A stretch of 63,068 nucleotides of DNA, counting the filler. It is 5 parts of 5 records of this genome, joined end to end, with 100 filler letters (N's around TTAATTAATTAA, not from the genome) between each part and the next. Parts side by side here need not be neighbours in the genome. Positions count along the whole stretch, not along the records: positions 1 to 12,055 come from DRR723986_10712; 4 more parts are not named here. One strand, 5' to 3'. Every line of letters starts with the position of its first letter. Positions within the stretch are counted from its first letter, which is position 1. A program made the position numbers and the translations under genes. This document shows positions 1 to 26,367 of this stretch, one piece after another. Below the pieces are notes generated by a model, which made no database searches, had not been told where the DNA came from, and saw only the letters and a list, made by a program, of their open reading frames with translations.

Positions 1-1
1 C

Positions 2-22
2 CGTGCCACTCAGGTACCGTAA
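2..22 (+). CDS. Possible 3' end of a truncated upstream gene ending ...RATQVP*
   Basis: Frame 2 reads CGT GCC ACT CAG GTA CCG TAA. The QVP ending matches the tails of the next two genes (GQVPRLDD, GQVPDID), and a strong hairpin follows. Confidence 0.45.
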   Translation, partial: RATQVP

Positions 23-56
23 GCAAGCGAAACGACGTTAGCAACGTATGAGTGAT

Positions 57-92
57 AAACATGGGTCCCCCCTAACAGGGGGGCCCATGTTT
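57..92 (+). terminator. Strong intergenic stem-loop (terminator or mRNA-stabilising hairpin)
   Basis: AAACATGGGTCCCCCCT-AAC-AGGGGGGCCCATGTTT is a near-perfect inverted repeat with only a short U tail. Confidence 0.6.
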
Positions 93-143
93 GGAAACAC
101 TAGCGACAGACACTCAATTAAAACTTTTAAGGATGATTGAATC

Positions 144-2456
144 ATGAGACGAGTTTACGGCGTCATCTTCTGCCTGATGATAGGTTGTTCCGTGAGCGCC
201 TTCTCCTACGACATCACCGTACGTGTCCTCAACCCGGAAGTGGACAACACAACTGCTACAGTTACGTACGATGTCTACCTGCAGAATACCAGTCCAGAGG
301 ATGTCCGTTTAACGGAGTCCTCTTATTTGTTTCAGTACAATAAGGACAAGTTCACGAATCTTGACTGTGATCTGAATTCGCCGTTAAACACGTCCCATTA
401 TGATCCGTACTGCGACATAGTGTTTAACGATGAGGTCATCCTGTTCGATATTCCCCATGATGTATCGAGTCCTTCGACGTCGAATACGCAGCCAATTGCG
501 AAGACCTTTCCAGGTACGCGCATTGGGTCAATCTCCGTATCGACGATCAATGACTTTACGGGGACATTAGATCTCGACTGGGAACCGAACTTCGGTGGCA
601 CACTGGTATTTGTGTACGATCCTTTACTGGATCTGGAGGAAGAGGCGAATCTTACGCTTGAAGCTATTCCAACAGTCTATGTTGGACCGCAATTCACAGC
701 TACGGTTACAAAGCAACAATTGCTGAATAACGATTTTACATTTGACGTTTTGGTCAAAAAGACGGACGGACCGGATTTCTATCTGGATAACTCTGACCTC
801 GTTATTCGTATTCCAAACCTCAATACAAAATTTACCGCGCCGGCAGTAACAATTACGCCGTGCACGGACCGTATTGACGACTTCTATCAAATTTCGAGCA
901 ACATCGTTGGTGATGAAATTCGAATTACGGTAGATGGTCCAAATGCACTTGCTGATCAAGCAGAGTTTAATCAACGCGTGCAAAGGATCTCACCTGTTGG
1001 TGACGGTACTAAAATCGTTTCGGTGGAAATCAGTAATGCAAACAATGGGCAAACTGTCTTTGACATGGGCCCACTGTGGAATTTCTCTATCCCCGGTGTA
1101 ACGACTGTACGTCAACGTCGTCCACTCAATAGCAGTGACGACATTTCCAACAATGGTACATTCGCCATTGATGCACCAGAATTCTCAATTGATGTTCAGG
1201 CACCCCTTGGTGGTGAACTCTTTTGTGGTGGTGACATCGTAACAATTGATTGGGTAGCTCAGAACATCGGTACGGTAGATATTACTCTGCTTGACGCTGG
1301 TACGACTTCCGCAACGATTGCTACAGGTGTAACAGCAACCAATGAAACGTACGATTGGACAGTACCTGGTGGCGTTGCCGCTGGTGACTATACAATTCGT
1401 GTACAAGATGCGTCAGCATCAGTACGCAACGATGACAGCGGTCTGTTTACAATTGGAACAGTTGCAACAATCACACAGCAGCCGCAAGGCGTTACGACTT
1501 GTGATGGTTCGACAGTAACACTGGAAGCAACAATTACAGGACTGGTTACATCACTTCAATGGAAGTTTAATGGTGTAAACATTACTGGCGCAAATGCTTC
1601 CACGTATAGCTTCACAGCATCTACTCTGACTGCAGGAGCATATACACTGTGCATTACGAACGATTGCGGAACTGTAGCAACAGTTCCAGCGCAGGTAATG
1701 GTTGAGCTTCCACCAGCAATAACACAACAACCTGCTGATCAAACTGTCACCGAACTTGATGATGTTTTGATTACTGTTGGTGCTACAGGCGCCAACCTTT
1801 CGTTCCAATGGCAGTATTCAACTAACAACACGATCTTTTCGGATCTGGCTGGCGAAACCAACCCAGACCTGATGATCAACCAAATTGCACTAAATGAAGC
1901 TGGTTTCTACCGTGTAGTAATCAATGGAAACTGTCCTCCGGCAATCACTTCTGATGCCGCAGAAATTACAGTAACACCTCTGTTTACTACGTTCGAAGTA
2001 ACTGCATATATGGAAGGATACTGGCGCGGAACGCATCATCGGATCACTCCGATTGCGATTGAACTGCGTGAAGGTCCAGACCTTGCAACTTCAAACACAG
2101 TAGCAATTACCAGCCAAATGATAAGCTCAACCGGTACTGTTGCAGCAATCTTCCCAGCTCTTGTTAGCGGAGATTATTGGCTCGTTGTCCGTCACGGTGG
2201 ACACTTCCCAGCTGCTTCAAATGGACGTCTGTCCGTTACTGCCGGTCAAACAGTTGTATACAACTTCTCAGATGCACCTGATCGTGCCTTTGGTGGAGTC
2301 GGTGTAACTGTTGAGTTCAACAATGCGGGTGAATATATGTTGCGTGCAGGCGATCTCAATGGAGACCAGACTGTATCTGCCGATGACTTCATCCAACACT
2401 TTATCCCGAACTTTGGTTTGTTCAATCCTGGGCAAGTACCAAGACTCGACGATTAA
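144..2456 (+). CDS. Secreted modular protein: signal peptide, two cohesin-like beta-sandwiches, one Ig-like and two I-set-like Ig domains, C-terminal beta-sandwich plus dockerin-like Ca-binding module
   Basis: 770-aa ORF with AAGGA upstream and a hydrophobic N-terminus. Two related ~160-aa domains (YDVYL..YNKDKF..GTRIGSI; FDVLV..NTKF..GTKIVSV). Ig motifs ITQQP..QW..G.Y. Tail GDLNGDQTVSADDF..GQVP. Confidence 0.85.
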   Translation: MRRVYGVIFCLMIGCSVSAFSYDITVRVLNPEVDNTTATVTYDVYLQNTSPEDVRLTESSYLFQYNKDKFTNLDCDLNSPLNTSHYDPYCDIVFNDEVILFDIPHDVSSPSTSNTQPIAKTFPGTRIGSISVSTINDFTGTLDLDWEPNFGGTLVFVYDPLLDLEEEANLTLEAIPTVYVGPQFTATVTKQQLLNNDFTFDVLVKKTDGPDFYLDNSDLVIRIPNLNTKFTAPAVTITPCTDRIDDFYQISSNIVGDEIRITVDGPNALADQAEFNQRVQRISPVGDGTKIVSVEISNANNGQTVFDMGPLWNFSIPGVTTVRQRRPLNSSDDISNNGTFAIDAPEFSIDVQAPLGGELFCGGDIVTIDWVAQNIGTVDITLLDAGTTSATIATGVTATNETYDWTVPGGVAAGDYTIRVQDASASVRNDDSGLFTIGTVATITQQPQGVTTCDGSTVTLEATITGLVTSLQWKFNGVNITGANASTYSFTASTLTAGAYTLCITNDCGTVATVPAQVMVELPPAITQQPADQTVTELDDVLITVGATGANLSFQWQYSTNNTIFSDLAGETNPDLMINQIALNEAGFYRVVINGNCPPAITSDAAEITVTPLFTTFEVTAYMEGYWRGTHHRITPIAIELREGPDLATSNTVAITSQMISSTGTVAAIFPALVSGDYWLVVRHGGHFPAASNGRLSVTAGQTVVYNFSDAPDRAFGGVGVTVEFNNAGEYMLRAGDLNGDQTVSADDFIQHFIPNFGLFNPGQVPRLDD

Positions 2457-2473
2457 GTTTTTTTGGAAAAAAG

Positions 2474-2525
2474 TGATATTCCCGGTGCTGCGATAGTAAC
2501 ATTTTCGCGGTATCGGGAATTGTCA
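2474..2525 (+). other. Long intergenic RNA stem-loop without U-tract
   Basis: TGATATTCCCGGTGCTGCGA..TCGCGGTATCGGGAATTGTCA pairs over about 20 bp using several G-U pairs, so it folds well only as the + strand RNA. Confidence 0.6.
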
Positions 2526-2606
2526 GCAGGTGGCACTGCACACACTTCCGGTCGAATATTGAATCCCATAACCAACGAATCCTTTTTCAGACACGGTATC
2601 ACAAGC

Positions 2607-3182
2607 ATGAAACAACGAAAATTTCAAACGTTGATGATGTCATTTGTCGCATTGTTTGCTTTCATAAGCACACAAAGCGGCGAATTACAAGCGCAAACCG
2701 TGACGACGTTCGAGGTAAAGGTGGCTTTGCAGGGATACTGGAATGGTGTGTCACATCGCAAATCTGCTGCAGCGATTGAGCTGCGGAGCGGTGTCGATCT
2801 GACTACATCATTGCTTACCCGCATTACCACAGGAATTATCGACGAAAACGGCGAAGTCACAGTATCGTTCGAAGACCTTCCAAGTGCAGACTATTGGGTT
2901 GTTGTCCGTCACGGATCACACATGCCGGTAGCTACACTCACACGGATAACAGTGACCGAAGGCGCAACACACAGTTACGACTTTACGAATGCCAATGACA
3001 AAGCTTTTCCCGGCTTTGACCCATTTTCACCCGTATTGGTGGAATTCGGCAGCACCGGAGTATTCCAGATTCGTACTGGAGACTTGGACGGTGACCAAAC
3101 TTGTTCGGCGAATGACTTCATTCAATACTTCCTGCCGAACTTTGGTGCGACGAGTTCTGGTCAAGTACCTGACATTGATTAA
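2607..3182 (+). CDS. Small secreted protein consisting only of the beta-sandwich plus dockerin-like module (paralog of the C-terminus of 144-2456)
   Basis: Start moved to MKQRKF, which opens a signal peptide ending LQA-Q. About 50% identical by hand alignment to the last ~157 aa of the previous gene. Ca-loop GDLDGDQTCSAND. Confidence 0.85.
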   Translation: MKQRKFQTLMMSFVALFAFISTQSGELQAQTVTTFEVKVALQGYWNGVSHRKSAAAIELRSGVDLTTSLLTRITTGIIDENGEVTVSFEDLPSADYWVVVRHGSHMPVATLTRITVTEGATHSYDFTNANDKAFPGFDPFSPVLVEFGSTGVFQIRTGDLDGDQTCSANDFIQYFLPNFGATSSGQVPDID

Positions 3183-3301
3183 ATGTCCGCGACCCGACTA
3201 TTCCCAAGCGCACTGCACACACACAGGCAACACCGAAAAGAACGTGAATGCCAGCTTTGAAATCTACGTGTTATTCTAATCTCATAAAGAGGATTTGTAC
3301 G

Positions 3302-6300
3302 ATGTCGAACATTGTACCGAGTTTCTCCAGAAAATTGCTTGTTACACTCATGAGCGTCTTCCTGCTCGGTAGTGTAACTGAAGCTTTTTCTGCGAATCTA
3401 ACGGAATTTTTCCTCCGCGATCAGCGGCCCAGCGACGACTGTACTGAGTACTTCGCCGAACTTTGGGTTACTGTTGATGCCGGAGAAACCTGGGACATTG
3501 CGTCGTCCAACATTGCTGTATCGTATAATACAGCAGCGATGGCGGCTCAGAACTTGGGTACGGCTCATGAGGCCAACCCATTCCTGACTGGCGACAATGT
3601 CAGTATCAGTCAAACGCCGGGACCAGGCTTCGTCAGGATCAACCTGCTGAAGTTTCCCGGATCCACTGCCACAAGTGGAACGTTCAAGATTGCCACGCTT
3701 CGTTGGACTATCACTGATAAGACCAACAGCGACAATCTGACGTTCATCACTGGTGGACCTTCCACACAGGTTTTCGATGACGCAACGGCATTGGCCTTCA
3801 ATTGCGGAACGAATCTGTGTTTTGGTGTTACAAACCCAACTCCTCCTCGCGTAATTGGTGGCCCGGTTATCACCGAACAACCAGTAAGCGTAACGACATG
3901 TGTTGGCTCTACCGTTGACTTCAATGTCAACGGTAACGGATGTAACATCGTTTGGCAATGGCAGCGTCTCGACGCTGGTGTGTGGACAGACCTTGCTGGT
4001 GAAACCAGCTCGACACTGTCACTTGCTAACGTAAGTGCAGCTATGGACGGCAATCAGTACCGCGTGGAAGCGACTGCTGATGAACCACCAGTAGCAACAT
4101 CCAACGTTGTAACTCTCACCGTTAACTCACCTGCTGTGTTTACTACACAGCCTGCTAATGTTGCAGAGTGTGAAGGTGCCGATGCCGACTTCACGATTGC
4201 TTTCACCGGAACAGCCCCTGTTACAATTCAGTGGGAACAGTTCAATGGTGGAACGCTGACGTGGGATCCACTGGCTGGTGAGGTTTCAACTACACTGACA
4301 ATTACGAATATCCAAACTTCGGATAATGGTAATCAGTATCGCGCAGTTCTCACAAACATCTGTAACTCCACTACGAGTAGTGTTGGTGTTCTGACTGTTT
4401 GGACTGCACCAATCGTCAATAACGACCCTAACGACAAGTTCATCTGCGCTGGTGACAACGTTACCTTCCTCGCAAACGCCAATGGTAACCCACTGCCAAC
4501 AGTACAGTGGCAGGTTGACAATGGTGGTGGTTTCGCGGACATTCCGAATGAAACCAGTGGAACACTGTCGATCAACAACGTTCCAGCTAACCTCAACGGC
4601 AACCAGTATCGTGCGGTATTCACGAATGTTTGTGGTTCATCCGCAACTGTTCCTGCTACTATCACTGTTTACGAACTGCCTGTTGTTGCTAACCAACCAG
4701 CTGATGTTTCAGTCTGCGAAAACAACGATGCAGTCTTTACGGTAAGTGCCAACAGCGCTATTCCGTTGACGTATCAATGGCAGGTTGACAACGGTGGTGG
4801 TTTTGGTGACATCGCTGGAGCAACCACAACAACTCTGACTCTGACGAATGTTCAGTTTGCTGCTAATGGTAACAACTACCGTGTTGTTATCAGTAACACT
4901 TGCGGAACAATCAACTCCAGCTCAGCTCTGCTGACAGTATGGACAGACCCAGTTGTTACAAACGATCCAGGTGACGCTTCGATCTGTGAAGGTACTAACC
5001 ACCAGTTCACAGCTAACGCTACTGGATTCCCAACGCCAACTATCCAATGGCAAGTAGATGACGGTAACGGCTTTGCCGATATCGCCGGTGCTACTTCCAG
5101 TACGTATACGGTTATGAATGCCATGCCTGGCATGAACGGGTATGAGTATCGTGCTGTATTCACAAACGTTTGCTCCGCAGTTAACTCTTCGGCAGCCGTT
5201 TTGACAGTTCGTCCAGTTCCTGCTATCACGCAAGAGCCAGTTGACGTTGCTGTTTGTGAAGGTCTCAACGCTTCCTTCGTTTCCGCTGCAAGTGGTGATC
5301 CAGTTCCAACAGTTCAGTGGCAAGTTGACAATGGCGGCGGTTACGCTGACATTGCCGGCGCAACCAATGCAACTCTGGACCTGAACGCCGTTGCCGCTGC
5401 TATGAATGGCAACCTGTACCGTGCTGTATTCACTAACGAATGTGGCATTGTCACTTCGTCAAGTGTTACACTCACAGTATGGACTGCACCAGTTGTAACG
5501 ACACAACCACTTGATCAGACGATTTGTGAAACCGACAACGTAAGCTTCACAGCTGCTGCAACCGGTTTCCCAGCTCCAACTGTACAGTGGGAAGAAAACG
5601 ATGGAAATGGCTGGGTTGCTCTTGCAGGTGAAACTGCTCTGACACTCAACCTGAACAATGTTGCTGCTACTTCCGATGGTTACATGTACCGCGCTGTGTT
5701 CTCAAACACATGTGCCAACGTGTCAACTACCGGCGCTACACTCACAGTTAACACTGCACCAGTTGTAACTCTGAATCCTGGCCCGCAAAACGGTTGTGAA
5801 GGTGATGACTTCATCTTTATCGCTGATGCGAGCGGCGATCCAGTTCCAACAGTTCAGTGGCAAGTAAACGATGGCGGCGGTTACGTTGACATTGTTAGTG
5901 CAACTTCAACAACGCTGACACTGACGAACGTTCAGGCAGCTCTGGATGGCAACCTTTACCGCGCAGTCTTTACGAATGTTTGCGGCATTGCTACTTCAGC
6001 CAGCGCTCTCCTGATCATCGACGTACCTGCATTCGTTTCTCTGAACCCAGCAAACCAAACGGTTTGTGAAGGTGTAGATGCCACTTTTGAATCAAATGGC
6101 GGCGGTACGCCTCCTCCAACGGTTCAATGGCAAGTAAACGATGGTAATGGCTGGGTTGACCTGGTCAACGCTACTTCAACAACTTTGACTGTTGTTAACC
6201 CACAAGCTTCGATGGACGGTAATAACTACCGTGCTATCTACACAAACGCTTGTGGAACTGCAGCGACTGTACCAGCATCGCTCACAGTTAACACCATTCC

Positions 6301-9300
6301 AGTTGTATCCGTTCAACCTCAAGATGTTGACAACGCTTGCGAAGGCGACGACATCTCCTTCACTGCAGCAGCAACTGGCCAGCCAGCTCCTACTGTACAG
6401 TGGCAGGAAGATGATGGTAACGGTTGGCTTGACATGGTTGGCGAAACCAATACGACACTTAACATCAACAATGTTCAGGGAACTCAGGACGGTTATATGT
6501 ACCGTGCTGTATTCACGAACGTTTGCGGTGTAACTAATAGCGATGCTGCCTTGCTGCTCGTTGACGTACCTCCAGCTGTAACGCTTGAGCCGGTTAACAC
6601 TACAGTTTGTCAAGGCGAAACTGCATTCTTCACTTCGACGGCTTCCGGTGATCCGGCTCCAACGATCCAGTGGGAATGTGATGCTAACGACGGTAATGGC
6701 TTCCAGGCACTGCCTGGTAAGACACTTTCGACTCTCGACCTGACAGGCGTTCTGCCTGAGTGGGATGGCAACCTTTATCGTGCCGTCTTTACTAACCCTT
6801 GCGGAACTTCAGTTCCTTCCGCTTCTGCAATGCTGACGGTTAACCTGGATCCAGTTGTTACAGCTGACCCTGTTAATACGACAGTTTGCGAAGGCGACAA
6901 TGCTTCCTTCACTGCAGCTGCTACGGGTCAACCGACTCCAACAGTTCAGTGGCAAATGGATGACGGCAATGGTTGGGCGGACATCGTTGGTGAAACTGCT
7001 CTGACGCTGAACCTGAACAACGTGATGGCAAACATGGACGGTTACATGTACCGTGCTGTCTTCACGAACATCTGTAATACAGCAACAACAGCTCCAGCAA
7101 TGCTGACAGTTAATGTTGCTCCAGTTGTAACGGCCAGTCCTGCTGACGTCGCTGTCTGCGAAGGTAGCGATGTTACATACACTGCTTCGGCAACTGGAAC
7201 ACCGACTCCTACTATCCAGTGGGAAGAAAACGACGGTAACGGTTGGGTTGCTATGGCTGGTGAGACTGGGCTCATGCTGACGCTCACGAACATCCCTGCC
7301 AGCTCTAACGGTTACATGTACCGCGCTGTCTTCACCAACGTTTGTGGTTCCGCTACTACGCTGGAAGCTACACTTACAGTTTGGACAGAGCCAACAATCA
7401 CGCTGAACCCAGTTGATGACGTTGTCTGCGAAGGCGAGGATGCTTCATTCTCCGCCGGCGCCGATGGCTTCCCAACTCCAACAGTACAATGGCAGTTTGA
7501 CGATGGTAACGGCTGGCAAGATCTTGCTGGTGCTACCGCTGTCAACCTGACAATCGTTGCTGCACAAGCTAGCCAGGACGGATACCTCTACCGCGCTGTT
7601 TTCACAAACAACTGTGGTACGGTAATCTCCAACTCCGCAATGCTGACGGTAAATACTCCACCAGTTGTAACTGCCGATCCAATGGACGTCACAGTTTGCC
7701 AAATGGAAACAGCAGAGTTTACTGTTGAATTCACTGGCCAGCCGACTCCAACGATCCAATGGCAGATCTTCAACCAGCAGTCATGGGCTGACCTGTCAGG
7801 CGAAAATAGCCCGACACTGTCACTGCCAAATGTACCTGGTGGTTGGGATGGTAACCTCTATCGCGCAATTCTCACGAATGTTTGCGGTACGGTTATCTCA
7901 CAAGCTGCTACCTTGCGCGTTCAGGATCCACCAGTTGTACTGGTTGAGCCTAATCCACAAACGGTTTGTGAAGGTGCTAACGTAACCTTTACTTCCAGTG
8001 CTGATGGCGATCCGATCCCAACGATCCAATGGCAGGTTAACGACGGTAATGGCTGGATTGACCTGGCGGGTGAAACTGCTCAGGATCTGCAGCTTAACAA
8101 CGTTATGCCAGCTATGGACGGCAACCTCTACCGTGCAGTATTCACGAATATCTGCGGTACAGTAGAATCTCAGCAAGTTGCTCTGGTTGTTAACAGCAAC
8201 CCTGTTATCACAGAACAGCCTGCCGACACCGAAGTATGTGAAGGTGAAATTGTCATCCTCCAGGCCGACGCAATCGCTAAACCGCCAGCAGTACTGCAAT
8301 GGCAGGTTGACCGTAACGACGGTAATGGCTGGGTTGACATCCTCGCAGAAAACACAACATTGCTCGACCTTGGTGCTGTAACAGCAGACATGGACGGGTA
8401 CATGTATCGTCTTGAGGCTTCCAACATCTGTGACGTTGTCAATTCCGACGCCGCTACACTGATTGTTAACGAAGCTCCAGTCGTAACAGCTGATCCTACT
8501 GACGAAACGATTTGTGAAGGTGATGACATTACCTTTACTGCGTCAGCCAGTGGACAGCCTACTCCAGAAATTACCTGGGAAATCGACCGCAATGACGGTA
8601 TTGGTTGGGTTGACTACGAAACCAATGCAACTGAAACTCTCAGCCTGACAGCAGTTCCAGCTGGATGGGATGGCTACAAATTCCGCGCTACGTTTGTTAA
8701 CGTTTGTGGTGTTGCCAGCTCCGCTGAAGCTGTATTGACTGTATGGACTACGCCAGTCGTTACCACTCAACCAGAAGACATGCTGGTTTGTGAGCCGAAT
8801 GATGTAACGTTCAGCGCTGCCGCAAGTGGCACGCCAACACCTACAGTACAATGGCAGGTTAGCACAGACGATGGTGGAATCTGGACTGACGTTGCCGGCG
8901 CTACTGCCGTTGACTACACGTTCACTCCAACAATCGCTGAAGATGGAAACCTCTACCGCGCAGTATTCACAAACGATTGTGGCGTTGCTACATCCGATGC
9001 TGCTGAACTCGACTACTACCTGCTTCCGTTCATCACAACACAGCCAACTGCTCCTGCAGAAGGTATCTGTGTTGGCCTCGACTGGACATTCACAGTCGTA
9101 GCCGGTGGTACGGAAATCAGCTACCAGTGGCGTAAAGATGGTGTAGATATTCCTGGCGCAACTAGCGACTCCTACACTCTGACCGGCATCGCCGTTGAAG
9201 ATGCAGGTAGCTACGATGTTGTAATCACGAACGTTTGTCAGTCGATCACGTCTGACGCTGCTGTTCTGATCGTCAACACACCGCCAGCTATCACAGCTCA

Positions 9301-11758
9301 GCCTACTGGCGACGAGATCTGCGAAGGTGAAGACTTCACATTCAGTGTAAGTGCTACCGGAACAGGACTTGTTTATCAGTGGCAGAAATACGATGCAGAC
9401 AACGACATCTGGATTGACATTGCTGGTGCAATGGACGCTACATTCACATTGACCTCCGTGGTTGAAGGTGATGAAGGCGACTATCGCGTAAACGTAAGCG
9501 GTGTTTGTCCTCCAGCTGTTGATTCCGACGCTGCTACGCTGATCGTCAACAACCCACCAATGATCACAACTGAGCCTTCAATCGAAGGTGAACTGTGTGA
9601 AGGTGATGAACTTGACCTCAACGTCGAAGCAACCGGTACGGATCTCACGTACCAGTGGTACTTCAACGGTGTCGAAATCGAAGATGCAGAAGACGCAAAC
9701 TTCAATGTTGAAGAAGTAACACCTGCTGACGCTGGTGAGTACTACGTAATCGTTAGCGGCCTGTGTGAGCCAGCTGTTCAGTCACAAACTGTAACAGTTG
9801 TTGTTAATCTGCTGCCACGTATCGAAGTACAGCCGATTAGCCTCAATGGCGACGACGCCATCTGTCTGGACGATCCGGCATCCTTCTCGGTCGAAGCCAG
9901 CGGTACAGGAATCGCTTATCAGTGGGAATACAGTGAAAATGGTGTTGTTTGGAATCCAATCGCGGATGCTGAAGAAGATTCATTCTCACTCGACAACGCT
10001 CAGTACAGTGACGCCGGTTTCTACCGTGTCGTCGTTACTGGTGTTTGTGAACCACCTGCAATCTCCGAAGCTGCTGAACTCGTAGTTCACCGTCCGGTTG
10101 AACTCACAATCGACGTTGAAGACCAAACCGTTTGTATCGGTGACAACCACATCCTGGTTGCTGACGGTACAGGTACACCAGAATCTGGTGATGAGAATGA
10201 CGAACTGACGTACCAGTGGTACAAAAACGGCGAAATCATTCCTCTGGCTAATGAGCGTCAGCTTATCCTGACGAACATCCAAGAGGCAGACGCCGGTCAG
10301 TATCAAGTCCTGATCACTGGTTACTGTAACTCAGTCTGGAGCTCAGTAGCGATCCTCTTCGTTACTCGCGAGCCACTGGCTGAAATCCTTGAGCCAAACG
10401 ATCTCGTTGTTAATCCAGGTGAAGACATCGAATTCGAAATCAACACCAATTGCCCTCCAGGAGCTACCTTCCAGTGGTTCCGTGGCGATGTTGAACTCGA
10501 AGACGACGGACGCATCACTGGTTCAAACCAAAGCCGTCTGGTTATTCGCGACGTAGTTCCTGGCGACGCCAGCAACAACTACTACGCCGTAGTATCCTGC
10601 GCTTGTGGTACAGTAACAACTGAGTTTGCCGCTCTGACGGTTAACCCACTCGAAATCAATATCACTGCTAACCCAGTTGACACTGAAGTTTGTGAAGGCA
10701 ATGAAATCTGCCTCGAATTTGCATTCGACGCATTTGGCCAGCCTGTTTCAATCCAGTGGTTCGTAACTGGTACGGACGAAGCAGTTGACGGTGCTACCAC
10801 CAACCCATGGTGTTTCATCCCAACTGAAGATCAAACGTACTATGCAGTTGTAACGCTCGACAGCAACCCGACTATCAGCTCAAACACTGGTAACGCTGCA
10901 GTAACGATCCTGTTCACACCTATCATTGCAACTCAGCCTGCTCCACAGGCAATTTGCCCAGATGGCGACGCTACCTTCACGGTTGCCGTTTCCAACGAAG
11001 ATGCTAATACTACGTATCAGTGGTTCTTCGAAGGCAATGCAATTGACGGCGAAACAGCATCGAACCTCAGCCTCACAGCTGTAACTGCTGATCAAGCCGG
11101 CATGTACTGGGTTGTCATCACAAACGAATGTGGTGAAACAACTTCAGAACAAGTTGAGCTTAGCTTCCTGCCTGATGCCGTTATCACAACGCAGCCTCAG
11201 GATCAGGGTTATGACTTCGGTGGTAAACAAACAACACCATTCTCGGTAGTTGTTGACGGTCCTGGTGTGTGTACGTATCAGTGGCAGTTCCGTGCAGACG
11301 GTGCAGCTGACTTTACGGACATCGCCGGCGCTGAAAGCAGTGAGTACCAGATTGATCAGAATGTTGCACTGACTCAAGCGAATGCCGGTGATTACCGCGT
11401 AGTCGTCACTTGCCAGTGCGGTTCTGTCACCTCTGACGCTGCTACGCTGAGCATCGGTACGACAGACGTCACATCGACTCTGCCGGGCATGCCATTCAGC
11501 TTGACACAGAACTTCCCGAATCCGTTTGACGCCATGACGCAAATCGGCTATACGCTGCATAAGCCAATGGATGTTGAACTGGTTATCACGGACGTAATGG
11601 GTCAGGTAGTTGCTACGATCGACTCCGGCTTCAAAGCTGCGGGTAGCTACGAAGTAACGCTGAACGCTGAAACTCTGATCCTCCCAAGCGGTACATACAG
11701 CTACACGCTCAAAGGCGAAGGTCAGGCTATCACGAAGCAGCTCATCATCGTTAAGTAA
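3302..11758 (+). CDS. Giant T9SS-secreted surface protein (~2818 aa): cohesin-like N-terminal domain, 28 tandem Ig domains, type A T9SS C-terminal sorting domain
   Basis: AGAGGA precedes ATG 3302; signal peptide ends AFS-A. ~90-aa repeats P.(V/I)T..P....CEG....F.......P..QW...G.......Y(R/x)(A/V)V..N.CG. CTD FSLTQNFPNPF..I.Y.L..V.L.I.D..GQ.V..LPSGTYSYTL..TKQLIIVK. Confidence 0.92.
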   Translation: MSNIVPSFSRKLLVTLMSVFLLGSVTEAFSANLTEFFLRDQRPSDDCTEYFAELWVTVDAGETWDIASSNIAVSYNTAAMAAQNLGTAHEANPFLTGDNVSISQTPGPGFVRINLLKFPGSTATSGTFKIATLRWTITDKTNSDNLTFITGGPSTQVFDDATALAFNCGTNLCFGVTNPTPPRVIGGPVITEQPVSVTTCVGSTVDFNVNGNGCNIVWQWQRLDAGVWTDLAGETSSTLSLANVSAAMDGNQYRVEATADEPPVATSNVVTLTVNSPAVFTTQPANVAECEGADADFTIAFTGTAPVTIQWEQFNGGTLTWDPLAGEVSTTLTITNIQTSDNGNQYRAVLTNICNSTTSSVGVLTVWTAPIVNNDPNDKFICAGDNVTFLANANGNPLPTVQWQVDNGGGFADIPNETSGTLSINNVPANLNGNQYRAVFTNVCGSSATVPATITVYELPVVANQPADVSVCENNDAVFTVSANSAIPLTYQWQVDNGGGFGDIAGATTTTLTLTNVQFAANGNNYRVVISNTCGTINSSSALLTVWTDPVVTNDPGDASICEGTNHQFTANATGFPTPTIQWQVDDGNGFADIAGATSSTYTVMNAMPGMNGYEYRAVFTNVCSAVNSSAAVLTVRPVPAITQEPVDVAVCEGLNASFVSAASGDPVPTVQWQVDNGGGYADIAGATNATLDLNAVAAAMNGNLYRAVFTNECGIVTSSSVTLTVWTAPVVTTQPLDQTICETDNVSFTAAATGFPAPTVQWEENDGNGWVALAGETALTLNLNNVAATSDGYMYRAVFSNTCANVSTTGATLTVNTAPVVTLNPGPQNGCEGDDFIFIADASGDPVPTVQWQVNDGGGYVDIVSATSTTLTLTNVQAALDGNLYRAVFTNVCGIATSASALLIIDVPAFVSLNPANQTVCEGVDATFESNGGGTPPPTVQWQVNDGNGWVDLVNATSTTLTVVNPQASMDGNNYRAIYTNACGTAATVPASLTVNTIPVVSVQPQDVDNACEGDDISFTAAATGQPAPTVQWQEDDGNGWLDMVGETNTTLNINNVQGTQDGYMYRAVFTNVCGVTNSDAALLLVDVPPAVTLEPVNTTVCQGETAFFTSTASGDPAPTIQWECDANDGNGFQALPGKTLSTLDLTGVLPEWDGNLYRAVFTNPCGTSVPSASAMLTVNLDPVVTADPVNTTVCEGDNASFTAAATGQPTPTVQWQMDDGNGWADIVGETALTLNLNNVMANMDGYMYRAVFTNICNTATTAPAMLTVNVAPVVTASPADVAVCEGSDVTYTASATGTPTPTIQWEENDGNGWVAMAGETGLMLTLTNIPASSNGYMYRAVFTNVCGSATTLEATLTVWTEPTITLNPVDDVVCEGEDASFSAGADGFPTPTVQWQFDDGNGWQDLAGATAVNLTIVAAQASQDGYLYRAVFTNNCGTVISNSAMLTVNTPPVVTADPMDVTVCQMETAEFTVEFTGQPTPTIQWQIFNQQSWADLSGENSPTLSLPNVPGGWDGNLYRAILTNVCGTVISQAATLRVQDPPVVLVEPNPQTVCEGANVTFTSSADGDPIPTIQWQVNDGNGWIDLAGETAQDLQLNNVMPAMDGNLYRAVFTNICGTVESQQVALVVNSNPVITEQPADTEVCEGEIVILQADAIAKPPAVLQWQVDRNDGNGWVDILAENTTLLDLGAVTADMDGYMYRLEASNICDVVNSDAATLIVNEAPVVTADPTDETICEGDDITFTASASGQPTPEITWEIDRNDGIGWVDYETNATETLSLTAVPAGWDGYKFRATFVNVCGVASSAEAVLTVWTTPVVTTQPEDMLVCEPNDVTFSAAASGTPTPTVQWQVSTDDGGIWTDVAGATAVDYTFTPTIAEDGNLYRAVFTNDCGVATSDAAELDYYLLPFITTQPTAPAEGICVGLDWTFTVVAGGTEISYQWRKDGVDIPGATSDSYTLTGIAVEDAGSYDVVITNVCQSITSDAAVLIVNTPPAITAQPTGDEICEGEDFTFSVSATGTGLVYQWQKYDADNDIWIDIAGAMDATFTLTSVVEGDEGDYRVNVSGVCPPAVDSDAATLIVNNPPMITTEPSIEGELCEGDELDLNVEATGTDLTYQWYFNGVEIEDAEDANFNVEEVTPADAGEYYVIVSGLCEPAVQSQTVTVVVNLLPRIEVQPISLNGDDAICLDDPASFSVEASGTGIAYQWEYSENGVVWNPIADAEEDSFSLDNAQYSDAGFYRVVVTGVCEPPAISEAAELVVHRPVELTIDVEDQTVCIGDNHILVADGTGTPESGDENDELTYQWYKNGEIIPLANERQLILTNIQEADAGQYQVLITGYCNSVWSSVAILFVTREPLAEILEPNDLVVNPGEDIEFEINTNCPPGATFQWFRGDVELEDDGRITGSNQSRLVIRDVVPGDASNNYYAVVSCACGTVTTEFAALTVNPLEINITANPVDTEVCEGNEICLEFAFDAFGQPVSIQWFVTGTDEAVDGATTNPWCFIPTEDQTYYAVVTLDSNPTISSNTGNAAVTILFTPIIATQPAPQAICPDGDATFTVAVSNEDANTTYQWFFEGNAIDGETASNLSLTAVTADQAGMYWVVITNECGETTSEQVELSFLPDAVITTQPQDQGYDFGGKQTTPFSVVVDGPGVCTYQWQFRADGAADFTDIAGAESSEYQIDQNVALTQANAGDYRVVVTCQCGSVTSDAATLSIGTTDVTSTLPGMPFSLTQNFPNPFDAMTQIGYTLHKPMDVELVITDVMGQVVATIDSGFKAAGSYEVTLNAETLILPSGTYSYTLKGEGQAITKQLIIVK
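3863..11458 (+). repeat. Array of 28 diverged ~270-bp Ig-domain coding repeats
   Basis: Manual segmentation of the translation gives 28 units, each with a C-strand Trp (QW) and an F-strand Tyr/Phe. Confidence 0.85.
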
Positions 11759-11795
11759 TCGATATCCGATAGGATCTAAACGATCCGTGTAATAC

Positions 11796-11832
11796 AAAAA
11801 GGCCGGGGTGCGCAAGCATCTCGGCCTTTTTA
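11796..11832 (+). terminator. Rho-independent terminator of the surface-protein cluster
   Basis: AAAAAGGCCGGGGTGC-GCAA-GCATCTCGGCCTTTTT: GNRA loop and U-tract. Confidence 0.85.
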
Positions 11833-12055
11833 TGTTTTAGGAACTGGGAGTTCTTACCGTTCACCGGCGGATCAGGGCACTTTAATCACTCTTCAGGGTA
11901 CGTTGGTTTAATTCGCAAATCTGGTATCCGAATATTACCTAAACTTGTACTTCGGTTCGGCGAACATGTGCGCTAAGCCACCCCAATCTCTGAAACCCCA
12001 TTTAGTTTTTCTCTTACTCCGGTTCTCCGGGTAAGGGAGGGTGTGTCCAGGAGGT

Positions 12056-12155
12056 NNNNNNNNNNNNNNNNNNNNNNNNNNNNNNNNNNNNNNNNNNNNT
12101 TAATTAATTAANNNNNNNNNNNNNNNNNNNNNNNNNNNNNNNNNNNNNNNNNNNN
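12056..12155. other. Artificial contig spacer
   Basis: N-run, TTAATTAATTAA (stops in all six frames), N-run. GC content and codon style change across it. Confidence 0.99.
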
Positions 12156-13917
<1,762 letters not shown>

Positions 13918-13921
<4 letters not shown>

Positions 13922-14646
13922 GACACCAGCTTTCCCGCCTGTTCCGGCGTCAGTTCGATCCAAAGCGTGTCGGCCTGCGCCAGCAATGTGCCGTCGGCGG
14001 CGTGCAGGGCGGTTCCGGCAAAATGCTTCCGTCCTTTGGTCCACTCATACCAGGCATGGATGATCACCGGCTCGCCGGTCGGGACGGCTTTGTGCTGCGC
14101 CGCAACCATCTCCCCCAGCAGGTAGGTCGTCTCGATCTCGGGCAGGGCGAAGCCGCCGGGGCAGTCCAGCGCGGCCCAGACATATTCCGGCCGGACATGG
14201 CCATGCCCGTCATCGAAATTGGCATGCGGGGTCCAGACGGCCGCGGCTTCCAGTCTGTCGCCGAGCCGTCCGCAATGGATGTGCAGGCCTTCGCCTTCCT
14301 TCCGGTTCCGTCCGCAGACGAAGCAGGTGGAGACGCCGCCCGCGCCGAAATAGGTCGGGGTCTCGGCGGCTTTCCGCGCCGCCTCAATGGAGGGGGGAGC
14401 AGGCGGGGTGAGCGTTACGCCGCCGGGCCGTGCGGTCAGGATCGGCAGGCCCTCGTGTTCGGCCACCAGGATCTTGTCCTGACGGGTCACGGCCAGAGGC
14501 CTGTCGAGCGGGATGGGGGCAGAGATGCGGACGGTATGGGGCGTATTGAACAGGCGCGACAGCACACCAGCCGCATAGCCGCCATTGCCCGAACTGGGCG
14601 GCCCGTTGAAGGCAGAAGCAATGGTGATATTGCCGACCGGCTGCAT
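13918..14646 (-). CDS. Uncharacterised hotdog-fold (thioesterase-like) protein
   Basis: FNGPPSSGNGGY, CFVCG, WAALDCPG and GRKHFAGTAL motifs. GGAG precedes ATG 14646. Confidence 0.7.
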
Positions 14647-14654
14647 GGTCTCCG

Positions 14655-14768
14655 CTCCGTCCCTCGCGCCGGCCACGCCGCTTTTCGCGGCATTCCCCGG
14701 ATCAGGTTCAAAGGGTAAAGTCTCAGCCCTGCCGGCTCATTCCGGTCAGGACACCCCTCGGATGGCGC
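14655..14768 (-). ncRNA. TPP riboswitch (THI element)
   Basis: Minus strand reads CCATCCGAGGGG..GGCTGAGA..ACCCTTTGAACCTGATCCGG..CCGGCGCGAGGGACGG, and it lies upstream of a thiC operon. Confidence 0.9.
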
Positions 14769-14864
14769 CACCCTAGTGAATCTGGCCGGACTTGGAAAGG
14801 GTGAAGCCGTATTGACGGAAGGTGTGCGCGTCCCGACCTATCCTTTCTTTGACGAGCATGTGCC

Positions 14865-15674
14865 ATGCACCTGAATGCCTATTTCGCGCGGATCGGATAT
14901 GACGGAACGCCAGCCGCGGATCTGGAAACGCTTCGGGCGCTAAGCCACCTGCACCCGCGTGCCATTCCGTTCGAGAATCTCGATGTGCAGCTGAAGCGCC
15001 CGGTCAGCATGGCGCCGGCGGTTGTGTTCGACAAACTGGTCACCCGGCGCCGAGGGGGCTGGTGCTATGAGATGAATGGCCTGCTGGGATGGGTACTCAG
15101 TGAGATCGGTTTTGACGTCCGGCGTGTCGAGGGCGGGGTGATGCGGGAGGCGACAGGCGATGGCACGCTCGGCAATCATCTCTGCTTGGCGGTCCGACTG
15201 GATGGTCAGGACTATCTCGTCGATGTCGGCTTCGGCGGTAGCCAGACTGCGCCAATGGTGATTACGCCGGGCAGCAACGCGCAGGTGCCGTTCGATCTGG
15301 AACTCGTACGGCTTGAGAACGGCTATTGGCGCATGGTTCAGTACACGCTGGGCAAGCCGTTCTCGTTCGATTTCCACCCTGACCGTTGCGACGAATCCTT
15401 GCTGGCCGACAAATGCAAGTGGCAGCAGAGCAATCCCGCGTCGGTTTTCGTTCAAAACCTTGTTGCGCAGAGGCGAACAGGGGAGGCGCATATCAGTCTG
15501 CGCGGGCGCGTGTTCACCCGGCTCGAATCCGGCACAGAGGAGAGGCGCCTGCTGCAGTCAGGCGCTGAGCTGGTTGATGTGCTGAAGGACGAATTCGACA
15601 TCGACGAGCCGGAAGCGGACGCGTTGTGGCCCGCCATCTGTGCGCGGCACGAGGCATTGTTCCCGCAAGCCTGA
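14865..15674 (+). CDS. Arylamine N-acetyltransferase family protein
   Basis: IPFENLD, RRGGWCYEMNGL (catalytic Cys), NHLCL (His) and YLVDVGFG (Asp). Confidence 0.93.
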   Translation: MHLNAYFARIGYDGTPAADLETLRALSHLHPRAIPFENLDVQLKRPVSMAPAVVFDKLVTRRRGGWCYEMNGLLGWVLSEIGFDVRRVEGGVMREATGDGTLGNHLCLAVRLDGQDYLVDVGFGGSQTAPMVITPGSNAQVPFDLELVRLENGYWRMVQYTLGKPFSFDFHPDRCDESLLADKCKWQQSNPASVFVQNLVAQRRTGEAHISLRGRVFTRLESGTEERRLLQSGAELVDVLKDEFDIDEPEADALWPAICARHEALFPQA

Positions 15675-15717
15675 GGGCAAGCTCAGACTTGGTGCGCGCC
15701 CCCTGGTGTCTGTTTGT

Positions 15718-16722
15718 CTATTCCGCTGCTTCGGAAGCGAGCTTTTTGACCGCCTTGTCCCAGTCGCTGACCTTGTCCAGCTGGCCATTGTAGACCCGGA
15801 TCTGGTCTTCCGGGGTGCGCATCAGCACGTCGATATGCGGCCGGGCTTTTTCGGCCAGCGGGCGGGCGATGGCGTCCAGTTCGGCCTTCTGCGCGCGCAT
15901 CAGCTTGTCGTCATCGAAGGTCTTCTGCGGCAGGGCTGGATTGGTCCAGATCCAGCCGCCATTCCCGAAATTGATGTTCTCCAGATAGACGTGCTCCCAA
16001 CGGGTCAGGCGTTCGACTTCCTGCCCGTAGAGGCGGGCAAGGTAGAAATCGAGCTCCAGCTTGTGGGCGGGGCAGGCGGCGTAGAGCGACTTGAGGCGGT
16101 TCCCGGCCCAGCCAAAGCCCGGATGATCGTATCTGGTCTTGATGAGCCGGTCCCATAGATTGGTCTCTTCCTGCAGGCGGAAATTGGCGTGGTCGGCAAA
16201 GGGGCAGGATTCGTAAGGGGCGCCGGAGATCACCGGGTGAAGGCGACCGGCCTCGGCCAGCGAAATCGTGTAGGGAATGGCGTATTTGAGCTGCGCCGTG
16301 GTGGCGGCATTGTAGCCGAAATAGTCCTTCTCGGTGCCATCCAACTGTTTCAGCACGCTCGGCTTCTGTTTCGTGTTCCAGGCATAATCGTTCTGCGTGA
16401 TCGCGGTCAGCGCTCGCGTGATGTCGCGCTCCAGCGTATCCAGATCCGATGCGGAGGCCATGACGGTGCTGGACAGGGTGGAGGCAATCGCCTGGGCGTC
16501 CGGCCGGTCCGGACAGGTCTCGATGGCCCAATCCGCCAGCTCCCGGATCGTGGCCGGGTCCGTCTGCGTGCCCTGACGGATGGCCATTTCCATATCATAG
16601 AGCGTCTGTTCGGCCTCGGCCGGGCAGGCGGGGGATGTTTCGGCGAAGGCGGGTGCAGGCATGGCGGCAGAGAAGGCCGCAAGTGCGAGGGGCGCCAATG
16701 CGCGGATCAGTCTTGTCTTCAT
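15718..16722 (-). CDS. Hypothetical secreted helical protein
   Basis: Start at MKTRLIRALAP, signal peptide ending AFA-E. GC3-rich coding frame, no family recognised. Confidence 0.7.
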   Translation of the reverse strand: MKTRLIRALAPLALAAFSAAMPAPAFAETSPACPAEAEQTLYDMEMAIRQGTQTDPATIRELADWAIETCPDRPDAQAIASTLSSTVMASASDLDTLERDITRALTAITQNDYAWNTKQKPSVLKQLDGTEKDYFGYNAATTAQLKYAIPYTISLAEAGRLHPVISGAPYESCPFADHANFRLQEETNLWDRLIKTRYDHPGFGWAGNRLKSLYAACPAHKLELDFYLARLYGQEVERLTRWEHVYLENINFGNGGWIWTNPALPQKTFDDDKLMRAQKAELDAIARPLAEKARPHIDVLMRTPEDQIRVYNGQLDKVSDWDKAVKKLASEAAE

Positions 16723-16878
16723 GGTGTCCCCAACATGTTCGGGGCTTTGTGGCATGGGTTGGGCGGCATGCGCACCTGTGGCGTGATTAACGCCAGCGGC
16801 AGTTCCATTAACCTTCTGTCGACCCGATTGGTCCATGTCTGGTGGCAGACACTGAACACACGGACGGGAGACCCGCCC

Positions 16879-17685
16879 ATGGCATTCGATGCTGCCCTTG
16901 CTGCCGCCCCAAAGACCGACACGAAGCCGACCAAATGGCAGCGTTTCAAGGTCGATTTGTGGCTGACAGACCTGAACCTCACCGAAATCGGCATCATGAA
17001 ACATACCCAGCATGAGGCGGAATCCGACCAGTTCACCAAGGATATGGAGATCATCGGCCAGATCCGCGAAGGCGGAAAACGGTCCGGCATCGTCGCCTAC
17101 CGCAAGGAATTGTGGAAGGAAGGCAAGGACATGAAACGCCGCCTGGTGATCAAGCTGTTTTCCGAGAACATGCGCTGGCGCGGCACGATGGAACTCATGA
17201 TGGGCCGCTCGCTGCAGCTCTCCATCGGGGCGCGCGGTGTGCCGGTGACGGCGTTCTCGCTGAACCTGTCACGGTCAAAACAGCTGATCCAGCTGGAGCG
17301 GTCGGCACAGAAATGGCCGCTGTTTCCTGAGAAATTCTCCTTCTTCATCGAAACCTCGCGTGGGCCGCGCTTCTATCGCCTGCGCCGGAACGTTATCGGC
17401 ATCGGGGCCGACTACACGCTGTATGACGACAAGAACCGCAAGATTGGTTCGCTGGACCACCGAATCATCAATCTGGGCGGCAGCTGGATGGTGAAGCTCG
17501 ACGCGGCGCATTCCTATGCGGCGCTGGAATCGGTGCTGCAGATGTTCTGCACCATGTTGCGATTCAACGGGGCTGTGCGCCGGCATGTCTCGCACGAAGT
17601 GGAGATGGTCAATCGCGGCCGCGCGGTGCGCGAGCTGGATCATCAGGAGGCAGACCTTTACCTCAATCCGCGCCGCCGGCGCTGA
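16879..17685 (+). CDS. Hypothetical protein, possibly LURP-one/Tubby-C/scramblase-like
   Basis: GGGAG precedes ATG 16879. The C-terminal segment RRNVIGIGADYTLYD..IGSLDHRIINLGGSWMVKLD resembles LURP-one repeats. Confidence 0.6.
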   Translation: MAFDAALAAAPKTDTKPTKWQRFKVDLWLTDLNLTEIGIMKHTQHEAESDQFTKDMEIIGQIREGGKRSGIVAYRKELWKEGKDMKRRLVIKLFSENMRWRGTMELMMGRSLQLSIGARGVPVTAFSLNLSRSKQLIQLERSAQKWPLFPEKFSFFIETSRGPRFYRLRRNVIGIGADYTLYDDKNRKIGSLDHRIINLGGSWMVKLDAAHSYAALESVLQMFCTMLRFNGAVRRHVSHEVEMVNRGRAVRELDHQEADLYLNPRRRR

Positions 17686-17688
17686 GGT

Positions 17689-18057
17689 CTATTTTCCGTC
17701 CTTGAGGAAACCGAGTTCCCGCCGGAGCTTTTTCGTGAGGCCGGCGGCGACCAGTTTATGCGAGCCTTCGAGATAGACCTTCAAATCGTCGTCGGAGAGC
17801 GTTTCCGGCGTGTAGCGCTGGATCCATTTCATGCCGCGTGAGGCCAGGTGCGGTGCGCCCCGGCAGCCGGGTTGTTCCTTCAGGATGTCGAAGCTCATCT
17901 CCGAAACCTTGAACGAGCAGACCATGTCGCCATCTTCCTCCCGGCCGATGGCGAAGACCTTGCCGCCCACTTTCCATACAGTCGCCTCGCCCCACTGGAC
18001 GACGCTGGTCGTGTGAGGAAGACTGCCGCAGAATTTGTTATAGGCCTTGAGCTTCAT
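17689..18057 (-). CDS. MmcQ/YjbR family protein
   Basis: FCGSLPHTT..QWG..VWKVGGKVFA..SFKV..APHLASRGMKW..SHKLV. Confidence 0.88.
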   Translation of the reverse strand: MKLKAYNKFCGSLPHTTSVVQWGEATVWKVGGKVFAIGREEDGDMVCSFKVSEMSFDILKEQPGCRGAPHLASRGMKWIQRYTPETLSDDDLKVYLEGSHKLVAAGLTKKLRRELGFLKDGK

Positions 18058-18067
18058 CGAGAGCGGG

Positions 18068-18466
18068 TCACAGTCCCTTTGCCTTGTCGCACATGTTTGA
18101 GACGAGTGCTTCAGCGAAGGGGCGGGGCTGGTCCTTGCCGCCAAACTTTACCCCATACAATGACAGTTCATCCCGCGCCTCGTTGTAGATCACTTCCAGC
18201 GTGGCGGCGGTGTTGATGCCGACATAGAGGATTTCCCCTTCAGCCGATACGCGCACCGTGTCCGGATCGTCGGTGCGATAGGCAGTCCATAACGTTTTGG
18301 CGTCGAAATCATTGATGAAGTAGCCATTGACGATCTTGCCGAGCGATTGGTCCGGGCATTCCGGCAGATAGGCATCCTTTGCTTCATCAATTACCGAATG
18401 TCCGCCACACGAAGAGAGCGCGCCGGTAAGCAGGCCAATTGCCGCGAGTGTGTGTCGTTTCATCAT
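18068..18466 (-). CDS. Hypothetical lipoprotein
   Basis: Lipobox-like LSSC after a hydrophobic stretch; GGGG upstream of the start. Confidence 0.65.
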   Translation of the reverse strand: MMKRHTLAAIGLLTGALSSCGGHSVIDEAKDAYLPECPDQSLGKIVNGYFINDFDAKTLWTAYRTDDPDTVRVSAEGEILYVGINTAATLEVIYNEARDELSLYGVKFGGKDQPRPFAEALVSNMCDKAKGL

Positions 18467-18609
18467 TTCCCCCCGGAACTGATCAGTCGAAAGATCACGA
18501 ACTATAGGTCCGTACCGGCCGCCTTGGCCAGATGGAAGATCTGTTGCGACGTCCGGTAGGAGGCAGGGTGCCCGCCGGGAGTCCGAACATCCCGGCGGGA
18601 TAAGCCGCG

Positions 18610-19368: not shown

Positions 19369-19528
19369 GATCTCTCTCCTCATCCGCGGGATGGCCCCAT
19401 CGCAGGTAGATAAGGCGCGGCCCGACGTCTGGAAGAGGCGCCGGAAGTGCTATGCGGTCACAATAAAAGTGATTGGACACGATGATTCGTGCCGCCGGTG
19501 GCGCCTGGTATATCAGTGTACAGAGAAA

Positions 19529-20370: not shown

Positions 20371-20473
20371 GCTCTCTCTCCGGTTAGAAAGAGGCGAGTC
20401 CCTATCCCCAAAGGCGAGTAGGCACAAGCTGCCAAACGCGCTGCGGTGCAGCACCTGACAGTGTTTTTTCAGA

Positions 20474-21232: not shown

Positions 21233-21294
21233 GAGCGCAACCTATCCATCCTCCTGAACGCCTTCCAGAGGCCGTTATCAGCCCGCCACGACTT

Positions 21295-21360: not shown

Positions 21361-21369
21361 GGATACAAA

Positions 21370-22008: not shown

Positions 22009-22104
22009 CACTCAGGAACGGGCCGAGGCGGGCTGAACCTGCCGATTGACCTGCCCTCTGATCCTGTGAAGACTGAAACAGGAACTCCGGATCAGAGGGC
22101 GGGC

Positions 22105-26363: not shown

Positions 26364-26367
26364 GGCA

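Follow-up and report, generated by a model that had tools for sequence, protein, structure and literature searches.

We analysed a stretch of 63,068 nucleotides (the window) in which five contigs are joined end to end, and describe a gene on its first contig, gene 3 (P0001), which codes for a giant rod of immunoglobulin-like (Ig) repeats whose neighbouring domains are predicted to be stapled to each other by disulfide bonds. The contigs occupy positions 1-12055, 12156-31459, 31560-37990, 38091-56140 and 56241-63068; the spacers between them (12056-12155, 31460-31559, 37991-38090 and 56141-56240) each consist of 44 N's, a stop-codon linker and another 44 N's. Their G+C contents are, in this order, 0.493, 0.625, 0.636, 0.511 and 0.558, which suggests a mixed bin. 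Since the Ig rod lies entirely inside the contig at 1-12055, only this contig was taken as genomic context. An open reading frame (ORF) for a ThiC-like protein (12108..13490, minus strand) is interrupted by a spacer, and its profile match ends at position 270 of 420. An exact-match look-up of the proteins of the window found nothing and gave no names for P0004 and P0006.

The three-gene locus

The first contig carries three genes, all on the plus strand, followed by a hairpin with a run of T. The ORF of gene 3 spans 3248..11758 (plus strand) and codes for 2836 amino acids. Its true start is probably the ATG at 3302, which by eye stands before a hydrophobic signal peptide, while a G+C-rich hairpin followed by a T run at 11796..11839 (plus strand), read directly from the sequence, is the likely intrinsic terminator. 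The signal peptide is followed by a small head, 28 I-set Ig repeats and a type IX secretion system (T9SS) sorting domain. Two Ig profiles match above their curated cut-offs, namely Ig_3 (PF13927; 588 bits, 23 stretches) and I-set (PF07679; 414 bits, 15 stretches). The 28 repeats of about 90 amino acids were found by a scan anchored on the conserved Trp and were then aligned with MAFFT. The span 3863-11458, to which a first-pass annotation of the window had drawn attention, corresponds to residues 206-2737 and reaches from repeat 1 (R01) to repeat 28 (R28). At the C-terminus, residues 2756-2834 (11513..11749, plus strand) form a T9SS type A sorting domain, recognised by TIGR04183 (33 bits against a cut-off of 23) and, barely above the threshold, by PF18962 (27.4 bits against 27).

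Only about 155 residues separate repeat 1 from the signal peptide, and there is no large N-terminal hook module. The head domain (residues 48-201; 3389..3850, plus strand) has no Pfam match and no significant similarity to gene 1. Judged by language-model features, it may be cohesin-like (scores 0.93-0.94, with Cohesin PF00963 on 13-18% of the cluster members). An AlphaFold2 model of the head together with R01, built from a three-row alignment, reached a predicted local distance difference test score (pLDDT) of 33.9 and was not used.

Gene 1 (P0002; 144..2456, plus strand; 770 amino acids) combines a lipoprotein-like signal and an N-terminal part with a Kre9/KNH-like Ig domain (residues 355-436), two Ig repeats (Ig1, residues 442-521; Ig2, residues 523-611) and a C-terminal module. 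The latter recurs in gene 2 (P0003; 2463..3182, plus strand; 239 amino acids), whose residues 81-239 share 51% identity with residues 615-769 of gene 1. This module of about 155 amino acids (1986-2456 in gene 1 and 2703-3182 in gene 2) appears, when read by eye, to end in a dockerin-like acidic loop. Profile searches gave no Pfam or NCBIfam family for gene 2. It is conceivable that the gene 1 and gene 2 products dock at the tip of the gene 3 rod.

Cys pattern and domain topology

Two Cys positions recur along the array: an early Cys, the last residue of strand A', and a late Cys at the tip of the FG hairpin. In the MAFFT alignment the early column is filled in 26 of the 28 repeats, being empty in R25 and R28, and the late column likewise in 26, being empty in R01 and R26. 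None of the repeats has a Cys at the canonical positions of strands B and F (columns 23 and 70 of the repeat hidden Markov model, HMM). The first-pass annotation had already described one early and one late Cys in most repeats, distinct from the canonical pair, and the short strings by which it had recognised the missing Cys of R01 (late), R28 (early) and the R25/R26 gap were all recovered where it had placed them. The four gaps follow a simple rule. At each of the 27 junctions of gene 3, the state of the early position in domain n equals that of the late position in domain n+1, and none of the four deficient repeats lacks both Cys. Random placement of two missing early and two missing late Cys among 28 repeats satisfies this junction rule in 378 of 142,884 cases, and the junction rule together with the rules for both array ends in 27 of 142,884.

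If each early Cys bonds to the late Cys of the following domain, 26 staples spanning 146-157 residues are predicted. They fall into two segments, R01-R25 (3851..10654, plus strand) with 24 inter-domain disulfides from the early Cys of R01 to R24 to the late Cys of R02 to R25, and R26-R28 (10655..11467, plus strand) with two (C2482-C2628 and C2570-C2724). No staple is predicted where R25 meets R26, at about 10650.

Gene 1 was said to obey the same rule, and it does so even across the border between its Kre9/KNH-like domain and its first Ig repeat. There, C361 of the Kre9/KNH-like domain, an early-type Cys, would pair with the late C508 of Ig1 (span 147 residues), and the early C453 of Ig1 with the late C597 of Ig2 (span 144 residues); Ig2, the last Ig domain, has no early Cys. 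Ig1 contains an extra Cys, C503, that had escaped the earlier annotation.

Further Cys, which the first-pass annotation had likewise left unmentioned, occur in the gene 3 protein outside the two columns. R25 (2402, 2451), R26 (2488, 2522) and R28 (2675, 2722) each hold an extra intradomain pair, and single extra Cys are found at residue 232 in the BC loop of R01 (position 3941 of the window) and at residue 1144 in R11 (6677). The head contributes Cys 65 (3440), 186 (3803) and 191 (3818). These three and Cys 232 are conserved in a close relative, L001, and, where covered, in a second one, L002. The four could form two more bonds, one of them perhaps between the head and R01. Cys 1144 is left over.

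The position of the two Cys within the Ig fold was obtained in two ways, which agree. HMMER alignment to Robo2/Robo1 puts the early Cys two positions ahead of the A'-B turn's Gly and the late Cys one position ahead of the Gly in the FG turn, and the canonical Cys of strands B and F are replaced. An AlphaFold2 model of R13-R15, for which 26 overlapping repeat triplets of the gene 3 protein served as alignment, is a straight, titin-like rod (pLDDT 97.4, predicted template modelling score 0.80) that retains the Ig fold without the canonical B-F disulfide. In this model, Cys14 is the last residue of strand 11-14 (A'), Cys76 occupies the turn that connects strands 67-74 and 77-80, and the last strand of one domain is continuous with the first strand of the next (strand 84-96). 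The best fits of the whole model in the PDB are titin I67-I69 (2rik, 2rjm), with template modelling (TM) scores of 0.75-0.76 and root-mean-square deviations of 4.3-4.4 Å. The two Cys thus sit at opposite poles of the domain, as had been proposed. Because of the placement of A' and FG, the two Cys of one domain should lie a domain length apart, and the early Cys of domain n and the late Cys of domain n+1 are modelled to face their common junction.

Homologs were examined in two sets. Set 1 contained 122 proteins, namely P0001, P0002 and the 120 listed of 710 matches in a word-indexed search; an HMM built from the 28 repeats of gene 3 cut it into about 2650 domains. Set 2 consisted of 121 new representatives at 50% identity among 150 listed of 37,043 matches of an exhaustive HMMER search (E 0.001). 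Junctions entered the count only if the gap between domains was -5 to 12 residues and the scored columns were occupied. In strict columns, early(n) agreed with late(n+1) at 2313 of 2358 junctions in set 1 and 2235 of 2319 in set 2. Agreement between the two Cys of one domain was 2349/2584 and 2414/2626, and that of late(n) with early(n+1) 2206/2412 and 2197/2386. When the windows tolerated small shifts, the junction rule held at 2337/2358 and 2275/2319 junctions, compared with 2361/2583 and 2463/2626 within domains and 2232/2412 and 2246/2386 for the reverse pairing. Across homologs, the two positions thus co-vary, which the first-pass annotation had named as a check.

Since most proteins are all-or-none, domains with a single Cys are the telling cases. 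The 243 proteins contain 223 early-only and 237 late-only domains, and 156 of the proteins are of the two-Cys type. Among the 159 runs with any one-Cys domain (131 proteins), mismatches amounted to 97/2318 for the junction rule, 400/2477 for the two Cys of one domain and 310/2318 for the reverse pairing. A stapled run begins with an early-only domain or continues a domain of another type, and it ends with a late-only domain. Every break consists of a late-only followed by an early-only domain (64 junctions in 93 proteins of set 1, 39 in 63 of set 2), and in neither set was a Cys-free domain seen inside a two-Cys run.

These data bear on the idea that each domain simply contains an ordinary early-late disulfide of its own. 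Most domains do possess both Cys, and agreement within domains is high. However, the two positions lie at opposite poles, hundreds of domains have only one of the two Cys, R01, R25, R26 and R28 of gene 3 would each keep an unpaired Cys, and no two-Cys run is interrupted by a Cys-free domain. We therefore consider intradomain pairing extremely unlikely.

In relatives, a third Cys occurs at the canonical F-strand position (HMM column 70) in 703 of 1743 two-Cys domains, without a partner in strand B; it is presumably a buried free thiol, and the gene 3 protein has none. P0034, a rod of the two-Cys type, is labelled by its source as derived from a metagenome-assembled genome (MAG) of a Methanotrichaceae archaeon, which means either that the design occurs in archaea or that the bin is mixed.

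Many of the mismatches, when read singly, turned out to be shifts of the late Cys by one or two columns. Others come with a compensation. The early Cys is missing from 20 of the 21 domains of P0148, which instead bear a Cys in the linker that follows strand G; the last domain is without this linker Cys. P0062 and seven members of the P0067 group likewise have a linker Cys in place of the missing early one, whereas in P0123 a Cys in the BC loop of domain n+1 stands in for the late one. At the late site of P0034 and P0105, two Cys stand next to each other. P0182 strings together early-only/late-only pairs, the linkers being short within a pair and longer from one pair to the next. In each of these cases a sulfur remains at the bottom of domain n and another at the top of domain n+1. 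Linker spacing follows the staples too: of 2820 stapled junctions, 2684 have a spacing of exactly 12 residues, against 46 of 79 unstapled junctions of such proteins and 1001 of 1532 junctions of Cys-free proteins.

The ends of the arrays behave accordingly. Where the last recognised repeat has an early Cys, at least one Cys follows within 110 amino acids in 111 of 112 cases, compared with 16 of 37 where the early Cys is missing. At the other end, a Cys stands before the first repeat in 93 of the 100 cases in which this repeat has a late Cys, and in 29 of the 49 in which it has none.

Could the pattern be an accident of repeat history, devoid of structural meaning? Duplication inherits Cys states in blocks, and the 64 breaks of set 1 collapse into 20 clusters at 50% identity, so that they represent several events and not 64 independent ones (at 40% identity nearly all breaks merged, and this threshold was unusable for counting events). 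Yet early(n) and late(n+1) are 152 residues apart and a repeat is only 90 residues long, so one duplication unit cannot hold both; the rule is maintained below 40% identity and at the array ends; and when the late labels were shuffled within runs, the mean number of mismatches was 306.6 and the minimum 278, none of 2000 shuffles reaching the observed 97. The probability of such an accident appears to us close to negligible.

GhpA and other fibrous proteins

The nearest precedent is grappling-hook protein A (GhpA) of Aureispira sp. CCB-QB1 (PDB 9flp, 9fls, 9flu-9fly and 9g8b), which the ixotrophy preprint describes as a T9SS substrate of 5898 amino acids with 52 Ig-like repeats in its stem (10.1101/2024.01.29.577165). 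According to the same source, the stem repeats measure about 82-97 amino acids, the hook module comprises about 1400 residues and the hollow stem is heptameric. The electron cryo-microscopy (cryo-EM) structure revealed intramolecular disulfides between nearby Ig-like domains, for example from Cys-2988 to Cys-3140 (10.1101/2024.01.29.577165, including the legend to Fig. S8), and contacts between protomers are described as hydrogen bonds. The preprint devotes one sentence and one supplementary figure legend to the disulfides.

GhpA (9flp_A) was the top PDB match of our three-repeat profile (E 7.3e-135, 18 stretches), and where the alignment was printed, its Cys match up with both Cys columns. 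According to the table of matched stretches, early Cys fall near residues 2824, 2906, 2988 and 3085, late Cys near 2959, 3140 and 3222. The distance from Cys-2988 to Cys-3140, 152 residues, equals the median staple span in the data from the relatives, and no other pair of columns fits. On account of these stretch coordinates and this span, the reported bond of GhpA would be an early(n)-late(n+1) bond. Compared with the PDB, a single-repeat profile did not list GhpA at E 1e-30, from which we conclude that the relation between the two proteins is distant. It did list Ig proteins of phage tails (9ncf, 9c2d), which lack both Cys, as well as Robo.

Like GhpA, the gene 3 protein has the marks of a T9SS substrate whose long stem is built from tandem Ig-like repeats; the stem repeats are homologous, and both proteins have Cys in the two columns. 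It differs in its size of 2836 amino acids, its head of about 155 residues and its 28 repeats of about 90 amino acids. Apart from the ixotrophy preprint (10.1101/2024.01.29.577165), our literature search found no description of the staple rule. The stapled design is hence not new: there is one experimental precedent, GhpA, and the gene 3 protein is a well-supported further example of it, not a new principle.

GhpA also has a bearing on whether the disulfides might connect parallel rods at the same axial level and thereby cross-link a bundle. GhpA is itself a heptameric bundle, and an in-register bond to a neighbouring chain would produce the same co-variation of early(n) with late(n+1). The described bonds of GhpA are nevertheless intramolecular, with hydrogen bonds between the protomers, while the fixed linker of 12 residues at stapled junctions and the replacement of the early Cys by a linker Cys point to a contact within one chain. 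A complex prediction with three copies of R13-R15 scored 0.00 and says nothing either way on bundling. Bonds between chains are, in our view, very unlikely.

Since bonding between successive domains of one chain is the only pairing that fits the gene 3 pattern, the 241 other proteins, the compensated exceptions and the GhpA disulfide, we infer that the gene 3 protein is an Ig rod in which early(n)-late(n+1) disulfides form at the junctions, in two ladders comprising R01-R25 and R26-R28. We put the probability of this reading at a little below 0.8.

A class of titin Ig domains termed 'N-conserved' is characterised by PPxh where strand A begins, by a BC loop rich in Pro and by an FG hairpin with NxxG, which pack at the N-terminal pole (PMC9529554). 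The repeat consensus of gene 3 has all three marks and, together with the superposition on I67-I69, this makes the array resemble titin I65-I70 (3b43, 2rik, 2rjm). In titin, however, the junctions are not covalently stapled and the Cys lie elsewhere, whereas those of gene 3 lie in the NxxG turn and at the end of A'.

The isopeptide-locked pilins of Gram-positive bacteria, such as Spy0128, work on a similar principle: the first strand of an Ig-like domain is joined to the last by covalent cross-links, which bear load and block extension under force. These are intradomain Lys-Asn isopeptide bonds and not interdomain Cys-Cys bonds, and the pilins belong to another fold family, use another secretion route and share no homology with our protein. 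Moreover, such pili are sortase polymers, while the gene 3 product is one giant chain. Closer in kind are SprB and the giant T9SS adhesins with Ig_7 or PKD_6 repeats, which are the same sort of protein with the same secretion signal. Many of our homologs carry PF19081 or PF19408 and obey the Cys rule, also across the border to other repeat types. To our knowledge there is no structure or disulfide map of SprB, and a literature search for either found none. Cytophagalysin was considered as a further staple case and rejected; its one predicted bond links the catalytic domain to D3 and is a different thing (PMC11674741).

Proposed bond formation and mechanics of the rod

L001 is 86% identical to our protein over head and R01 and has the same three-gene order. 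The genomes of L001 and L002 (G001 and G002, 5.6 Mb each) contain at least 150 matches to T9SS sorting domains apiece. The MAG of L001 is labelled as an uncultured Hyphomicrobiales bacterium, a label with which so many T9SS sorting domains are at odds.

Several points weigh against disulfide staples in the gene 3 protein. Neither DsbA (PF01323), DsbB (PF02600), VKOR (PF07884) nor Thioredoxin_4 (PF13462) was matched in G001 and G002, although the completeness of these genomes is unknown and absence is not proven; the generic Thioredoxin_2 has 10 matches in each. As is known from Dsb systems, consecutive disulfides form more easily than interleaved, non-consecutive ones. Since the number of Cys in the mature protein is odd (63), at least one of them must be free. 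The proximity of early(n) and late(n+1) is argued from topology, and the mapping of the GhpA bond, derived from stretch coordinates and not from residues 2988 and 3140 themselves, is accurate to about 2-3 residues. With shift-tolerant windows, residual mismatches number 6 (+-) and 15 (-+) in set 1 and 8 and 36 in set 2, a part of which was read singly. Finally, since repeats as well as proteins have common ancestors, the homolog counts lack phylogenetic independence, and the repeat HMM was itself derived from the gene 3 protein.

The lack of matches to a classical oxidase in G001 and G002 lowered our confidence in bond formation. It is also what would be expected if the two Cys meet at the junction but remain reduced or bind a metal, the co-variation resulting from packing; co-variation reveals a shared site, not its chemistry. 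On the other hand, disulfides are present in the cryo-EM density of the homologous GhpA stem as described, two thiols alone make a poor metal site, the shift of a partner to the linker or BC loop suits a bond between two sulfurs more than a shaped site, and the protein is exported to the cell surface. We regard reduced or metal-bound Cys as unlikely. By analogy, GhpA indicates that such bonds exist in this class of proteins, and in the gene 3 protein they would be made either by an oxidase not yet known or through oxidation of pre-positioned thiols after export. The question arises by which agent dozens of interleaved Cys pairs become oxidised in lineages that lack DsbA, DsbB or VKOR.

The stapled rod may be pictured as follows. 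The gene 3 product would be a surface fibre exported by the T9SS, with the sorting domain at the cell-proximal end, the small head at the tip and 28 titin-like I-set Ig domains in between. At each junction, the early Cys at the C-terminal pole of domain n would meet the late Cys at the N-terminal pole of domain n+1 and form a disulfide, which would create 26 overlapping covalent loops of about 152 residues in two ladders. The late Cys of one staple precedes the early Cys of the next but one by 28-33 residues. Being interleaved in this manner, the loops would provide two covalent paths, each made of a G strand, the A/A' strand of the next domain and a disulfide, over and over again. With the load running through the staples, the junctions could not swivel freely, and the rod would be little extended even if domains unfold.

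The mechanical effect we infer from path lengths. At 0.38 nm per residue, the shortest covalent path through R01-R25 measures about 156 nm with staples versus about 859 nm without them. A titin Ig domain is about 4.3 nm long; with this figure, taken over from titin, folded R01-R25 would measure about 108 nm. By comparison with the isopeptide-locked pilins, the rod should be stiff at its junctions and nearly inextensible.

The first-pass annotation had envisaged a continuous stapled rod of roughly 100 nm. Its length is reasonable, as 28 domains of about 4.3 nm give about 120 nm, and the pairing it proposed is supported by the 27 junctions, the relatives and GhpA. What did not stand is the continuity from end to end: the unstapled R25/R26 junction divides the rod into 25 and 3 domains. 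In the conserved cassette at this end (10373-11755), which occurs in 19 of 243 proteins, the successive Ig domains are late-only, early-only, two-Cys and late-only, and behind them comes the sorting domain of about 100 amino acids. It is a reasonable guess that R25/R26 is a conserved hinge three domains above the anchor.

Taken together, the data would also accommodate a wider reading, for and against which we see the odds as even. According to it, the staple is a general, unnamed rule of T9SS Ig-like rods that operates across repeat families and borders between domain types, with a partner Cys that can move between the end of A', the linker and the BC loop; the two-path ladder caps R01-R25 at about 156 nm instead of about 859 nm; and the bonds arise without classical Dsb or VKOR enzymes, by proximity after export or with the help of an enzyme that is not yet known.

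If the staples are real, the gene 3 protein and many of its relatives are single-chain fibres that neither hinge nor extend. That would matter for the understanding of force transmission in gliding adhesins, grappling hooks and other appendages of this kind. Moreover, it would provide a rule by which hinges can be predicted from the genome: a late-only domain followed by an early-only domain would mark a hinge, and elsewhere the rod would be rigid.

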